A stretch of DNA of 64,000 nt from the NCBI RefSeq assembly GCF_964213995.1, contig NC_135805.1, forward strand, positions 45,198,001-45,262,000, given 5' to 3'. The stretch is from Mustelus asterias. Its lineage: Eukaryota. Shown here piece after piece: positions 16,500 to 62,169 of this stretch (within the stretch, counting starts at the first letter, position 1; each line of letters opens with the position of its first letter). The notes under the pieces were generated by a model. It had not been told where the DNA came from, did no database searches, and worked only from the letters and a program-made list of their open reading frames with translations. A program made the position numbers and the translations under genes.

Positions 16500-17790
16500 C
16501 CACCTTTATCCACAACACATGTGATTCCTTCAAAGAACTACAAGAAATTGGTTAAATATGATTTCCCTTTCACAAAACTATGTTGACTCTGCCAGATTGC
16601 CTTGAACTTTTCCAAGTGCCCTGATATAACATCTTTAGTAATGGATTCTAACATTTTCCCTTTGACAGATATTAAGCTAACTGGCCTATAGTTTCCTGCT
16701 TTCCATCTCCCTCCCTTTTTGAATAAAGGAGTTACATTTGCATCTTCCAATCTGATGGAACCTTTCCAGAATCTCAGAAATTTTTGGAAAATCAAAGCCA
16801 GCACATCAACTATCTCATTAGCCACTTCTTTCCGGACCAGGGGATTTTTCAGCCTGCAGAACCAACAATTTTCTCAATTCCACTTCTCTGGTGATTGTAA
16901 CTTTCCTGTGTTCCTCCATCCCTTCCATTTCCTGATTCACAGCTATTTCTGGGATGTTACTTGTGTCCTCTATAGTGAGGACAGATGCAAAATAGCTGTT
17001 TAATTTATCCGCCGTAGCCCTATTTTCCATTATCAATTCCCCAGATGCATTTTCAATTGGACCAATGCCCATTTTGTTAATTACTTTCTTATTTAAATAT
17101 TTATAGAAACTCTTACTATCCAACTTTATATTACTAGCTAGCTCTCTTTCGTACCCTAGTTTTTCCCTCCTTCTCAATCTTTTTGTCATTTTTTGCTGTT
17201 CATTATATACTTTCCAATCTTTTAACCTGCCATTTATCTTTGAATGGATAGACGTTTTTTCTTTAAATTTAATCTTCAGGAAATCTACGAAAATCTATAG
17301 AATTTTGGAAGACGATCACCAATGCATCTACTATCTCTACAGCAACCCCTTTCAACACTCTGAGATGCATAATATCAGGCCCCAGGGACTTATCAATTTT
17401 CAGTCCCATTAATTTCTCCAATACAACCTTCATAATTATGTTAATTTCTTTCAACTCTGCATTCTCCCTATTCCCTTGGATCTCTACATCTGGGAGATTT
17501 TCTGTATCTTCCTTAGTGAAATCAGAAAATACTGGAAAATATCAGCAGTTCTGACAGTATCTGTGGAGATTGAACAGAGCCAACATTTCGAGTCTGGATG
17601 ACTCTTCGTCAGAGCAGCTGTTTTTGTTTCAGATTGCAGCATCCGCAGTAATTTGCTTTCATCTTCCTGAGTGAAAACAGACATCAAAGTAATCATTTAG
17701 TTTCTCTGCCATTGCTCTATTCCCCCTTATGAATTCTCCTTACTCTGCTTGTAACAGACCCACATTTGTCGCAGCCAAAAGCTTCCTCTC
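16500..17790 (-). mobile_element. Fragmented CR1 ORF2 pieces, probably two overlapping copies
   Basis: ORFs 16538-16825 (NYRPVSL), 16818-17189 and 17269-17454. The KSPGP region occurs twice. Confidence 0.85.
17527..17660. mobile_element. Deletion derivative of a palindromic Penelope-type element with hammerhead-like core
   Basis: The minus strand reads CTGACGA-A-GAGTC-ATCCA-GACTC-GAAA. A duplicated 21-mer flanks it (17506-17526 and 17661-17681, 19/21 identical). It is homologous to 58856-59331 and 61898-62117. Confidence 0.75.
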
Positions 17791-32575: not shown

Positions 32576-34717
32576 TTGCCATTGCCATGGGATAGGGCCG
32601 AACGGCAGGGCAAGGTTTACAATTGGGGGAGGGGTAATTATGATGCGATTAGGCAAGATTTAGGGGGCATAAGTTGGGAACAGAAACTGTCAGAGAAAGG
32701 AACTAATGAAAAGTGGAACTTTTTCAAGGAACAAATACTGGATGTCCTTGATAGGTATGTTCCTGTCAGGCAGGGAGGAAATGGCCGAGTGAGGGAACCA
32801 TGGTTCACAAAAGAGGTGGAATGTCTTGTGAAAAGGAAGAGGGAAGCTTATGTAGGGATGAGGAAACAAGGTTCAGATGGCTCGATTGAGCGTTACAAGT
32901 TAGCAAGGAATGAGCTGAAAAAGGGGCTTAGGAGAGCTAGGAGGGGACATGAGAAGTCCTTGGCGGGTCGGATCAAGGAAAACCCCAAGGCTTTTTACTC
33001 TTATGTGAGGAATAAAAGAATGACCAGGGTGAGGTTAGGGCCGGTCAAGGACAGTAGTGGGAACTTGTGTATGGAGTCAGTAGAGATAGGCGAGGTGATG
33101 AATGAATACTTTTCTTCAGTGTTCACCAAGGAGAGGGGCCATGTTTTTGAGGAAGAGAAGGTGTTACAGGCTAATAGGCTGGAGGAAATAGATGTTCGGA
33201 GGGAGGATGTCTTGGCAGTTTTGAATAAACTGAAGGTCGATAAGTCCCCTGGGCCTGATGAAATGTATCCTAGGATTCTGTGGGAGGCAAGGGATGAGAT
33301 TGCAGAGCCTTTGGCGTTGATCTTTGGGTCCTCACTGTCCACGGGGATGGTGCCAGAGGACTGGAGAATGGCGAATGTTGTTCCTCTGTTTAAGAAAGGG
33401 AATAGAAATGACCCTGGTAATTATAGACCGGTTAGTCTTACTTCGGTGGTTGGTAAATTGATGGAAAGGGTCCTTAGGGATGGGATTTATGACCATTTAG
33501 AAAGATGCGGATTAATCCGAGATAGTCAGCACGGATTCGTGAAGGGCAAGTCGTGCCTCACAAATTTGATAGAATTTTTTGAGGAGGTAACTAAGTGTGT
33601 TGATGAAGGTAGGGCAGTTGATGTCATATACATGGATTTTAGTAAGGCGTTTGATAAGGTCCCCCATGGTCGGCTTATGATGAAAGTGAGGAGGTGTGGG
33701 ATAGAGGGAAAGTTGGCCGATTGGATAGCTAACTGGCTGTCTGACCGAAGACAGAGGGTGGTGGTCGATGGAAAATTTTCGGATTGGAGGCAGGTTGCTA
33801 GCGGTGTGCCGCAGGGATCAGTGCTTGGTCCTCTGCTCTTTGTGATTTTTATTAATGACTTAGAGGAGGGGGCTGAAGGGTGGATCAGTAAATTTGCTGA
33901 TGACACCAAGATTGGTGGAGTAGTGGATGAGGTGGAGGGCTGTTGTAGGCTGCAAAGAGACATAGATAGGATGCAAAGCTGGGCTGAAAAATGGCAAATG
34001 GTGTTTAACCCTGATAAATGTGAGGTGATTCATTTTGGTAGGACAAATTTAAATGTGGATTACAGGGTCAAAGGTAGGGTTCTGAAGACTGTGGAGGAAC
34101 AGAGAGATCTTGGGGTCCATATCCACAGATCTCTAAAGGTTGCCAGTCAAGTGGGTAGAGCTGTGAAGAAGGCCTATAGTGTGTTAGCTTTTATTAACAG
34201 GGGGTTGGAGTTTAAGAGCCGTGGGGTTATGCTGCAACTGTACAGGACCTTGGTGAGACCACATTTGGAATATTGTGTGCAGTTCTGGTCACCTCACTAT
34301 AAGAAGGATGTGGAAGCGCTGGAAAGAGTGCAGAGGAGATTTACCAGGATGCTGCCTGGTTTGGAGGGTAGGTCATATGAGGAAAGGTTGAGGCAGCTAG
34401 GGCTGTTCTCTCTGGAGCGGAGGAGGCTGAGGGGAGACTTAATAGAGGTGTATAAAATGATGAAGGGGATAGATAGAGTGAACGTTCAAAGACTATTTCC
34501 TCGGGTGGATGGAGCTATTACAAGGGGGCATAACTACAGGGTTCGTGGTGGGAGATACAGGACGGATATCAGAGGTAGGTTCTTTACGCAGAGAGTGGTT
34601 GGGGTGTGGAATGGACTGCCTGCAGTGATAGTGGAGTCAGACACTTTAGAAACATTTAAGCGGTTATTGGATAGGCACATGGAGCACACCAGGATGATAG
34701 GGAGTGGGATAGCTTGA
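32576..34717 (+). CDS. CR1 LINE ORF2 fragment: linker, complete RT and C-terminus; endonuclease domain absent (5' truncation)
   Basis: 713 codons without a stop, with [39 protein letters not shown] and WNGLP. The listed start is a flanking TTG, not a true initiator, so it is probably not expressed. Confidence 0.9.
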   Translation: MPLPWDRAERQGKVYNWGRGNYDAIRQDLGGISWEQKLSEKGTNEKWNFFKEQILDVLDRYVPVRQGGNGRVREPWFTKEVECLVKRKREAYVGMRKQGSDGSIERYKLARNELKKGLRRARRGHEKSLAGRIKENPKAFYSYVRNKRMTRVRLGPVKDSSGNLCMESVEIGEVMNEYFSSVFTKERGHVFEEEKVLQANRLEEIDVRREDVLAVLNKLKVDKSPGPDEMYPRILWEARDEIAEPLALIFGSSLSTGMVPEDWRMANVVPLFKKGNRNDPGNYRPVSLTSVVGKLMERVLRDGIYDHLERCGLIRDSQHGFVKGKSCLTNLIEFFEEVTKCVDEGRAVDVIYMDFSKAFDKVPHGRLMMKVRRCGIEGKLADWIANWLSDRRQRVVVDGKFSDWRQVASGVPQGSVLGPLLFVIFINDLEEGAEGWISKFADDTKIGGVVDEVEGCCRLQRDIDRMQSWAEKWQMVFNPDKCEVIHFGRTNLNVDYRVKGRVLKTVEEQRDLGVHIHRSLKVASQVGRAVKKAYSVLAFINRGLEFKSRGVMLQLYRTLVRPHLEYCVQFWSPHYKKDVEALERVQRRFTRMLPGLEGRSYEERLRQLGLFSLERRRLRGDLIEVYKMMKGIDRVNVQRLFPRVDGAITRGHNYRVRGGRYRTDIRGRFFTQRVVGVWNGLPAVIVESDTLETFKRLLDRHMEHTRMIGSGIA

Positions 34718-34800
34718 TCTTGGTTTCAGATAAAGCTCGGCACAACATCGTGGGCCGAAGGGCCTGTTCTGTGCTGTACTGTTCTATGTTCTATGTTCTA
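32586..34800 (+). mobile_element. Young 5'-truncated CR1/HER1-type LINE
   Basis: Open ORF2, short 3' UTR (GGGCCGAAGGGCCTG) and the tail TGTTCTATGTTCTATGTTCTA. Confidence 0.96.
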
Positions 34801-35002
34801 TTGCATTATATGGTGAAAACTAGTTCCTCACTATGAATATAAGATCAAATAAAATAGGAGCAGTAATAGGCCATGTGGCCACTCGGGACTGTCTGACCAT
34901 TTAGTCAGGTCATTGCTGACCCTCTACTTGAGCTCCACTTTCCCCATCAGTCCCCATATTGCTTGATTTCATTACTGTTCAAAAATCTGTCAATCTCTGC
35001 TT

Positions 35003-36020
35003 TAAAAGTAAAAGTTTATTTATTAGTCACAAGTAGGCTTACATTCACACTGTGATGAAGTTACTGTGAAAATCCCCTAGTCGCCACACTCTGGCACCTG
35101 TTCGGGTACACTGAGGGTGAATTTAGTATGGCCAATCCACCTAACCAGCACATCTTTGGACTGTTATAGAACAGAGAACATAGAACATTACAGCGCAGTA
35201 CAGGCCCTTTGGTCCTCGATGTTGCGCCGACCAGTGGAACCAATCGAAAGCCCCTCTAATCTACACTATTCCAATATCATCCATATGTTTATCAAATAAC
35301 CATTTGAATGCTCTTAATGTTGACGAGTCCACTACTGCTGCAGGCAGGGTATTCCACGCCCTTACTACTCTCTGAGTAAAGAACCTACCTCTAACATCTG
35401 TCCTATATCTCTCACCCCTCAATTTAAAGCTATGTCCCTTCGTGCTAGCCTACACCATCCGAGGAAAAAGGCTCGCACTATCCACCCTATCTAATCCTCT
35501 GATCATCTTGTACGCCTCTATTAAGTCACCTCTTAACCTTCTTCTCTCTAACGAAAACAACCTCAAGCCCCTCAGCCTTTCCTCATACGATTTTCCCACC
35601 ATACCAGGCAACATCCTGGTAAATCTCCTCTGCACTCTTTCCAACACTTCCACATCTTTCCTATAATACGGCGACCAGAACTGTACGCAATACTCCAAAT
35701 GCGGCCGCACCAGAGTTTTGTATAGTTGCAGCATGACCTCCTGGCTCCGAAACTCAATCCCTCTACCAATAAAAGCTAACACACCGTACGCCTTCTTAAC
35801 AACCCTATCAACCTGGGTGCCAACTTTCAGGAATCTATGCACATGGACACCCAGATCCCTCTGTTCATCCAGGTTGGAGGAAACCAGAGCACCCGGAGGA
35901 AACCCACGCAGACATGGGGAGAACATGCAAACTCCACACACACAGTGGTCCAAGCCGGGAATCAAACCCGGGTCCCTGGTGCTGTGAGGCAGCAGTGCTA
36001 ACCACTGTGCCACCATGCCA
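35003..36020 (-). mobile_element. Tail-B V-SINE split by a CR1 3' fragment (35165-35872, minus)
   Basis: The SINE breaks at CATCTTTGGACTGT and resumes GGAGGAAACC at about 35876. The CR1 frame RDLGVHVH...LVRPHLEYC lies between. Confidence 0.9.
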
Positions 36021-58143: not shown

Positions 58144-58855
58144 CTGTATCATGGTTTTGAAGAGGAACTTGAGAACTTAATCTTTTTCATTTGAACTAAA
58201 AAGATTACGATGTTCACCTGTTAGAGGTCATGAAGATTATGAGGGATTAAATCTCTCAAGTCTCTTGGTAGACGCCTCGTTTTTGAGTATGTCCAAGCTG
58301 TAAATGAGTTCATCGCCTTATGTAGGTCCTGTCATGACTGAGGAGTTTGTTGCAGGATCAACATGGATATCCACAGCTCCGACAGTTCATTTTGTCATTG
58401 TTGGTGCTTGGGGGAACATCTGCAGCTGCACCACCTCTGGTTTTCCTCTGGGCACATCTGCTATTGAGAAATTAGTGTAGATAGTCCTCAAAACATGCTC
58501 ACCCAAATTTCAGCACTTGCCACCATGTGGGCCGGTCAACTGCAGTATTTTCCCAAGAAAGGTGGTCTGCAATGCAGAACTTTGTAAAGCTCCTTATTTA
58601 GGGTGTTCCTTCTCTCCATAGAAGATCTGCCTGGGGATTCTGTAGTTCTATGAGGGAGACATGGCCTACTCATCTAAGTTGAATTTTCTGAAGTGTGGTC
58701 TCCGTGCTATTGAGCCCAGCACAATGAAAGGCCTCAGTGTTTTTAATTCTGTCCTGCCATCTAATTCTCACAATGGACCTTAGATATCTTTGGTAGAAAT
58801 GTTCCAAAGCTTTGGTGTGATGCCTATAGCAAACCCAGGATTCTTTTCCACACAT

Positions 58856-59331
58856 AAAGGCAAAATACTACGGCTGTTGGAATCTGAGACAAAGACAGAA
58901 AATGCTGGAAAATCTCAGCAGGTCTGATAACATCTGTGGAGAGAGAATAGGGTCAACATTTTGAGTCTATACCTGTATCGAGTCTGAGCAGCACGGTGGC
59001 ACAGTGGTTAGCACTGCTGCCTCACAGCACCAGGGACCTGAGTTCGATTCCTGGCTTGGAATGTGTGGAGGTTACACATTCTTCTCGTGCCTGACTGGGT
59101 TTCCTCCGGGTGCTCTGGTTTCCTCCCACAGTCCAAAGATGTGCAGGTTAGGATGATTGGCCATGCTAAATTACCACTTAGTGTCAGGGGTCTAGCAGGG
59201 TAAATACATGGGGTAACGGGGATAGAGGCTGGGTGGCATTGTGGTTGCTGCAGACTTGATGGGCCAAATGGCCTCCTTCTGCACTGTAGGGATTCTATGC
59301 TGAGATTTTCCAGCATTTTCCGTTTTTGTTT
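58856..59331. mobile_element. Palindromic Penelope-type element whose centre is occupied by a V-SINE (58988-59298, plus)
   Basis: The left arm GAAAATGCTGGAAAATCTCAGCA and the right arm TGCTGAGATTTTCCAGCATTTTC are reverse complements. Confidence 0.75.
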
Positions 59332-60032
59332 CTGCTCCATACAGCTGGCTTGGAAAGACAATGACCTGGTAGAGTTTGGTTTTAGCCTTCTGCTTAACAC
59401 CATGTGGCTTCCAGACATGATCATAGAGTTAGCGGTAGGCAGAATCTGCTTCCTGGATGTGTGCACTGATACCTTAATCAAGAGAAAGCACATTACTAAG
59501 GTATAAGGACTTTTCTACAGCCTTGAGACAGTTGCTATCAACTGTTATGTCTGGTACTTCATAGTGCGTGCCTGGCGCTGGCAGTAACATTGCTCTTGGA
59601 GACACTAATTTGGAGACCAAAGGTTTTTTACAGCACTCAGTGACTTGTTTCCCATAGTCTCAATGTTCTCCTTATTATGGACAGAGTGATCTGCACACAG
59701 AAACTTTCTGATTACTGCCTCTGTGGCTTTGGTGGAGAAATGCAAGGAGTTTCTTTCTGCAAACACCATATCGGCTCTCCCATGATTAGCCCAAAAACCT
59801 TGCTATGATTCTGGGAGGACTTCAACTGTGGGGCCGTGTAGTAGATGGCTTAATAGGACTCTTAGGTTGATCTTTTCTGTGATTGAGAGGAGACTTATTC
59901 CTTGATCATTGCTGGACACATTTTTGGGTGCTTTCCAGGAGCCATCTCTGTAGTTATCCTTGTGGCTCTGTCAAAACTTTCCTGATCCTTGATCTTCTCG
60001 AAGATGGCTGTAAGTTTGTTAACAATCTTTAT

Positions 60033-61400: not shown

Positions 61401-61897
61401 TTTGTACTATGCACTTGCAAATCTCTGCTAGAATGCCATCCAGGCTGGAGGTTCAACATTGTTTGGTTGATTTGATTACCGTTTTCACCTCTTCAGTGGA
61501 AGGAGAAAGAGACAGGCTCTGTTTCTCAGGCAACTGATACAGAGTCTCCGTTGAGATGAGGAACCTCTGCCGGAGACCTCGGCAAAATGGCTCACACCTA
61601 CTTTCCGTTGCATGCTTTTTCGGGGATTAATCCATTTCCATTAGCTGTTAGGATAGGAACAAAGATTGTAGTGGCTGGACCTGATACAGGTACATTGTGA
61701 AACCATGGATCATTGCTCTCAGCTAGATTTTGTGGTTCCTCAGCTTTTAAGTTCCATCAGTGATTCCGCATTTCCCTTAAAGTACTCTGGGGTTTGTATT
61801 TAGCATTTTTAAAAACTTAACACTGGCTTGCTGACTCTGCGGCTGCTAGAAGACTTGCACGTGTGATCTGCTTGTTTGAGAAAATAGGAGATACTTT

Positions 61898-62117
61898 ATA
61901 AAAGTAAATTACTGCGGATGCTGGAATCTGAAACCAAAAGAGAAAATGCTGGAAAATCTCAGCATTTGTCAAATGCTGAGATTTTCCAGCATTTCGAGTC
62001 CAGATAACCCTTTGTCAAAGCTTCGACAAAGGGTCATCTGAACTCGAAACGCCAGCTCTTTTCTCTCCTTACAGATGCTGCCAGACCTGCTGGTCCTTTT
62101 CCAGCATTTTCTCTTTT
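61898..62117. mobile_element. Palindromic Penelope-type element with head-to-head hammerhead-like units
   Basis: Outer 23-bp inverted repeat at 61934-61956 / 62097-62119. Central 25-bp arms at 61992-62016 / 62025-62049. Flanks GGAGATACTTT / GGAGATATTTT. Confidence 0.8.
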
Positions 62118-62169
62118 GGAGATATTTTCATCATTCACAAACCACCTTGACAGTTGCGCTTGGTGTATT

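Follow-up and report, generated by a model that had tools for sequence, protein, structure and literature searches.

EN+ Penelope-like elements (PLEs) leave insertions that have been described as containing an inverted 5'-truncated copy, a 30-40-bp tail at one end, target-site duplications (TSDs) of variable length and partial tandems, and a putative TATA box has been placed in the pLTR of the rotifer element Pen2a (PMC8557442; PMC3846280). Metazoan PLEs also carry minimal type I hammerheads, which are characterized by an extra base between positions 9 and 10.1, a G10.1-C11.1 pair, a palindromic 15.2-16.2 and a short stem I, and for the PLEs of Schistosoma, including S. mansoni, a U3-A8 variant of the core and pairs of hammerheads on opposite strands, 100-700 bp apart, were reported (PMC4209133). 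The protein of an Anolis carolinensis PLE, Poseidon_Ac, nicks and extends both target strands in vitro, starts synthesis at two internal positions between which the tail lies, and takes uncleaved RNA as its dominant template (PMC11167929). Non-LTR retrozymes, which occur in Chondrichthyes, are non-coding, PLE-derived and equipped with a type I hammerhead as well, and form head-to-tail tandem arrays (bioRxiv 10.64898/2026.07.22.740005). The PLE insertion architecture, the minimal hammerhead and the U3-A8 variant are already in print; our literature search, with repeat databases and supplements outside its scope, returned no description of the shark family presented here, of a vertebrate PLE with a U3-A8 core, or of stubs that stop at a TATA-defined start, and the supplement alignments of PMC4209133 could list shark motifs.

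The window, a 64,000-nucleotide stretch of the genome of the shark Mustelus asterias, contains a palindrome spanning 61898-62119 (the window copy), which an initial annotation, made from the letters alone, had delimited at 61898-62117 and described as two head-to-head hammerhead-like units. The 25-bp central inverted repeat with two mismatches that it had noticed is present at 61992-62016 and 62025-62049 around the center AAAGCTTC (62017-62024), and the predicted fold of the region reaches -101 kcal/mol (z = -12), with 0/200 shuffles being equally stable. The palindrome is flanked by an 11-bp duplication with one mismatch (61887-61897 and 62118-62128), and the first two bases of the right copy (62118-62119) are also the element end. 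To describe the two halves, we number the arm from the A of the AGCT that precedes the hammerhead core (+1). The inverted arm, on the minus strand, covers 61898-62022 and runs from +1 (62022) to +136 (61898), as delimited by blastn against the natural copies L141 and L097 and by an alignment of 30 loci; it ends in a ~36-bp tail (61898-61933) that the same alignment and the arm-end maps of sampled loci place on this arm only. The direct arm, on the plus strand, covers 62019-62119 (+1 to +100), lacks the tail and is 90-92% identical to L141 and L097. The two arms are fused through a self-complementary AGCT (62019-62022) that constitutes the opening four bases of both, in agreement with the counts of four-base overlap junctions given below. 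We conclude that the window copy consists of two head-to-head pLTRs that were likely made in one insertion, and that the central AGCT, which the annotation had assigned to either unit as its stem I, is probably what the joining left behind, not a ribozyme part shared by the two units.

The plus half reads as the annotation had parsed it, and, from the sequence and the per-position frequencies of the family, a minimal hammerhead unit can be delimited at 62019-62057 (plus strand): stem I (62019-62022/62054-62057), a core with a U4C change (62023-62029), stem II with one mismatch (62031-62035/62041-62045) and the GAAA (62046-62049) followed by U16.1C, with the cut expected after 62053 from the motif parse. 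On the minus strand, comparison with the family alignment leaves a remnant (61992-62022) whose UUGACAA core, stem II and GAAA are intact and whose 3' part is gone. At 61965-61991, 27 bp of inverted element sequence stand in place of ~41 bp of the left arm, and this swap took out the cut site of the minus unit and the 3' strand of its stem I. The swap lies within a second, 51-bp hairpin (61944-61994) that the annotation had overlooked; this rearrangement is private to the window copy and missing in the other 29 loci of the 30-locus alignment.

Two further insertions had been grouped with the window copy, and blastn supports the relationship of all three (70-92%). The diagnostic bases downstream of the core place the other two in a sister subfamily with a C3-G8 core, and, among the three named copies, two hammerhead-like units occur only in the window copy. 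The insertion at 17506-17681, TSDs included, has a minus arm (17615-17525, +2 to +92) with a single hammerhead of CUGACGA core (17612-17606) and a short plus arm with the tail (17621-17663). The insertion at 58854-59332 has no complete hammerhead: its minus arm, with the tail, begins at +23 and extends to +136 (58967-58854), its plus arm covers +70 to +104 (59298-59332), and a SINE occupies the middle (58985-59299). The differing flanking duplications claimed for the three loci hold for the window copy and for the clear 21-bp duplication at 17506/17661, whose final ~8 bp match the element end as well, whereas the duplication at 58.8 kb is weak (14 bp, three mismatches). The SINE is tRNA-headed and joined to the right arm via a short overlap, many further copies of it lie within the window, and we take it to be of the shark HE1/V-SINE type. 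An inverted repeat elsewhere in the window (34092-35871), with 592-bp halves that are 75% complementary and lie 596 bp apart, probably represents two LINE fragments.

The Penelope-like origin that the annotation had proposed is borne out: the arm is the ~136-bp pLTR of a high-copy PLE. Across the 3.68 Gb searched, two arm motifs gave 7,293 and 13,589 (21-mer) exact matches, while their reversed controls gave none (0); from these counts and the ~5% divergence of the arms from their majority sequence (74 arms), we infer that the genome contains tens of thousands of arms. Walking upstream from the longer arms led into a common 3' UTR and then into coding sequence. In L097, a 518-aa open frame with matches to RVT_1 (E 1.7e-4) and GIY-YIG (E 1.4e-3), each below the Pfam gathering cut-off, is followed by the 3' UTR and by the same arm with its tail, into which the element runs on, and an inverted tail-less arm sits at the 5' truncation point; the annotation had suggested looking for RT plus GIY-YIG on an element sharing the arm. 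In the partial tandem L141, the ORF end, 3' UTR, pLTR and tail continue into the next ORF. The parent ORF has 302 homologs at E<=1e-20, which bear PF00078/PF01541, and shark and ray proteins of 54-64% identity are among those with names. Two ray proteins carry the names of host genes (one has a divergent kinase domain, the other a chitinase domain); they match the element ORF at 58-62% identity and are probably gene models that have absorbed the element.

To place the parent among PLEs, we compared its protein with the criteria of PMC8557442, in which CCHH cysteines and a DKG motif are listed and a CX2-5CxxC linker is given for Neptune/Nematis and as missing in Penelope/Poseidon. Two cysteines lie between the GIY and the YIG of the parent protein (CCHH; L097 and L092), a DKG motif was seen in L092, and a CX4CxxC linker between RT and EN occupies residues 385-393 in the L097 frame. 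Judged by these protein motifs alone, the parent is likely a C-terminal EN+ PLE of the Neptune/Nematis rather than the Poseidon type; we rejected the Penelope/Poseidon clade since the linker that this clade lacks is present. The linker also separates the shark element from Poseidon_Ac, as does its ORF, whose start in L141 seems to lie beyond the tail and not within the hammerhead, as in the Anolis element (PMC11167929). Downstream of the L141 tail (L141:2197-2240), a pyrimidine tract and CAG directly precede an ATG that possibly starts the ORF; as with D. virilis Penelope, they may represent the acceptor of an intron in the 5' UTR. Altogether we found a single ORF with RT and C-terminal GIY-YIG (in L097, outside the window copy), partial tandems of the pLTR, an inverted 5'-truncated copy, a one-sided tail, variable TSDs and, like Pen2a, a putative TATA box in the pLTR, and by all features tested the window copy is an ordinary EN+ PLE insertion. 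The shark family differs from the described EN+ PLE insertions in that its shortest form, two pLTR arms without ORF (referred to as stubs, together with the solo arms), is very common.

At the family level, the annotated minimal type I hammerhead is supported: per-position frequencies in 74 arms show a paired 3:8 core, the GAAA, a UH cut site, stems I and II and palindromic 15-16, and the family parses with all four of the extra features given in the available text of PMC4209133. In the subfamily of the window copy, U3 occurs in 69/74 and A8 in 67/74 arms. The degeneracy that the annotation had seen in the core of the window copy is therefore in part the family state, a compensated U3-A8 pair, and in part private decay, namely U4C, U16.1C and the stem II mismatch of the plus unit, next to the lost cut site of the minus unit. 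The first 100 of 10,428 pattern matches comprise 61 U3-A8, 23 C3-G8, 11 C3-A8, 2 U3-G8 and 3 other cores, with positions 3 and 8 covarying between the subfamilies. The C3-A8 cores would mostly reflect CpG decay, and we regard U3-A8 as one compensatory change passed down to many copies, not as many events. This U3-A8 pair is shared with Schistosoma and, in contrast to it, resides in a vertebrate (cartilaginous-fish) family, where it is commoner than the C3-G8 sister (61 against 23 in this tally); also, the hammerheads on opposite strands abut each other in the shark copies rather than lying 100 bp or more apart. A U3-A8 pair keeps part of the hammerhead activity. The accessible portion of PMC7151607 contained nothing on the activity of this pair. 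At least three further PLE hammerhead subfamilies, with C3-G8 cores, a GUU cut triplet or other stem II and spacer types, were seen in L200-L229 and the pattern listing, and the pattern of the further subfamilies gave 5,988 matches vs 146 in the reversed control, with other stem II types among the first 100 matches listed.

An Rfam scan, as the annotation had proposed, returned no hammerhead match for the window copy (E<=10) or for seven better copies (E<=1), only hairpin (miRNA-type) matches under the gathering scores, and so the ribozyme call is based on the motif parse against the published minimal features. In the predicted fold of a solo RNA from +1 to +140, stem II forms with a probability of 0.93 and stem I with 0.65, but in the palindromic copies, the window copy included, both stems have a predicted probability of ~0 on either strand. 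These predictions suggest that the hammerhead would be folded shut in the palindromic copies, including this one; together with the mutations in both of its units, this argues against the annotated ribozyme on each strand.

For the architecture of such copies, we examined the first 100 matches, in chromosome order, of a motif outside the ribozyme, which lie in the first 10 Mb of one contig and yielded 99 arms; all counts use this motif-based sample because the 30 best matches to the window copy are biased to the shape of the query. The sample gives 84 insertion rows, in which L191 was entered twice and L049 and L139, having a common flank, are not independent. L049 and L139 are pairs ~13 kb apart in opposite orientation, with a common junction and one common flank and a different other flank, likely due to local duplication or conversion. 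The rows divide into 38 inverted pairs and 46 solos. The 3' ends of the sampled arms are bimodal, at about +99-105 and +135-142, resembling the two 3' end sites that bound the tail of Poseidon_Ac, and the ~36-bp tail is present on exactly one arm in 36/38 pairs: 30 pairs are short plus tail, six tail plus shorter, two short plus short and none tail plus tail (binomial p 5e-9). At the 5' side, 52/99 arms, or 64/122 with the partner arms, start at +1 to +4, with the +1/+2/+3 assignment ambiguous by symmetry at fused junctions. Only 3/122 arms have their 5' end at the ribozyme cut site (+36), and AGCT microhomology could produce these too. The texts of PMC8557442 and PMC3846280, as far as they were available, held no such counts for the one-tail rule or the +1 stop. 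TSDs of 9-19 bp were found in 35/84 rows (27/38 pairs and 8/46 solos, counted from the sample rows) vs 0/252 swapped-flank controls, and 18/99 arms reach past -50 as a truncation ladder up to the ORF. Among the 46 rows bearing upstream sequence, 35 contain TATAAA (counted by hand), at -30 in 31/33 U-type and at -30/-31 in 4/4 C-type context matches, and this spacing is constant although the spacer sequences differ between the sister subfamilies. By eye, an extra cap-derived G before +1 was sought in the sampled arms, where clean junctions were too few, and no clear pattern of microhomology separated tail from short ends in the 84 rows. The 24 sequencing runs considered, 18 of them presumed to be RNA, all consist of contigs; in the four examined, loose ends near +1 and +136 came from other organisms, and such contigs show no start, cut or level.

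The junctions between the arms are mostly unique, with 24 types among the 28 scored pairs outside the top hits. The four-base overlap (AGCT) is found in 20/28 top-hit pairs and in 4/28 of the others, and one recurrent junction, compatible with a five-base microhomology, is represented by 20 copies spread over 13 contigs, and either of their arms may bear the tail. In six copies that bear an ORF (L062, L067, L090, L095, L097, L101), the junction with an inverted pLTR lies deep in the element, again with the tail on either arm. Three copies (L230:1500, L231 and L232, at 7.68, 7.84 and 10.99 Mb of one contig, thus within 3.3 Mb) share a private junction spacer of 18 bp that matches nowhere else in the genome, and each has a separate TSD and the tail on different arms.

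We think it probable that the stubs are two pLTR copies of a high-copy, likely Neptune-type PLE, likely produced within a single insertion by a pair of short RT runs over the 5' end of uncleaved RNA. The element RNA would start at +1, 30 bp below TATAAA; the element endonuclease would nick the two target strands at a distance of 9-19 bp, with priming at +136 from one nick and at +100 from the other; both cDNAs would run off the 5' end of the uncleaved RNA, and the two ends would anneal via the self-complementary AGCT or other microhomology. Lacking the -30 TATA box, the resulting stubs would be dead on arrival, and the hammerhead, a feature of the parent RNA, would stay silent in them. Stubs are likely run-off copies of uncleaved RNA, because 64/122 arms stop at +1 to +4 and 3/122 at the cut site. 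Double priming is transferred here by analogy from the Anolis element, itself of the Poseidon clade (PMC11167929); combined with microhomology, it may account for the one-tail rule, the fused center, the junction on 13 contigs and the inverted pLTRs deep in the ORF. Against independent joining speak the three copies that share a private spacer yet differ in TSD and tail side, for which we prefer local gene conversion at palindrome centers over local re-mobilization.

If self-priming or fold-back took place on the first cDNA or an antisense template, the same parent could also generate the inverted arm in that way, with the endonuclease trimming one end to leave the one-sided tail. Self-priming has been proposed for palindromic PLE junctions (PMC3846280) and EN-mediated resolution for PLE palindromes (PMC8557442), and the scheme accounts for the perfect palindromic centers and the one-tail rule; still, the pLTRs joined deep in the ORF of six copies, with the tail on either arm, rule out a simple fold-back at the truncation point and require a second priming or a template jump, and two internal RT start sites were shown in vitro (PMC11167929), so we consider this route unlikely. 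We rate as lower still the chance that the palindromic unit is copied whole in trans as a non-autonomous element, which was the reading of the initial annotation. Mobilization of PLEs in trans was reported for rotifers (PMC3846280), and both the recurrent fused junction and the shared spacer with different TSDs would fit; however, the arm is the pLTR and occurs as solos in 46/84 rows, in pairs with many, mostly unique junctions and at the ends of ORF copies, the tail changes arm among copies with the same junction, stubs are without the -30 TATA box, and the private spacer occurs three times genome-wide, always locally, as expected of ectopic gene conversion.

It is very improbable that a splice acceptor or a site nicked by the endonuclease, instead of a transcription start, lies behind the pile-up at +1 to +4, a case in which the remaining model would be unchanged. 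The bases before +3 do resemble an acceptor (pyrimidine tract plus AG), one C-type spacer contains a branch-like CTGAT, and in D. virilis Penelope, whose promoter is TATA-less (PMC2377424), an intron ends at helix I (PMC4209133); but no common exon-1 sequence lies upstream of the arms, the AG is kept at many non-palindromic junctions, and the TATAAA spacing is fixed across diverged spacers. That the copies are short, non-coding, palindromic and numerous would suit a DNA-transposon MITE with terminal inverted repeats, an identity with next to no probability given the asymmetric ends, the solos, the 5'-truncation ladder up to the ORF and the linkage to RT/GIY-YIG: neither a fixed TSD nor symmetric terminal inverted repeats appeared in the 84 rows, and the variable TSDs bear out the annotation, which had argued from them for retrotransposition. 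We also rejected a non-LTR retrozyme: no head-to-tail tandem hammerhead units were encountered in the sampled loci, which are solos and inverted pairs with individual TSDs.

Returning to two short RT runs over uncleaved RNA as the preferred origin of the stubs, an extended version of it appears to us evenly balanced between true and false, in which TATA-started RNA begins at stem I, a dimeric RNP primes both strands (+100/+136) on uncleaved RNA, the ribozyme is still under selection, and the stubs are a genome-wide footprint of insertion. Selection on the ribozyme is suggested because a lineage in which U3-A8 took the place of C3-G8 retained the pairing and reached tens of thousands of arms. 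The value of the stubs lies in the dataset, which serves the questions of how PLEs insert and what their hammerhead does: from short copies bounded by TSDs, in their tens of thousands, come a sharp one-tail rule, a candidate for the start site and a low rate of copies ending at the cut site, and all three (the rule, the start site and the rate of cut-site ends) would be testable with an in vitro system like that of the Anolis element.
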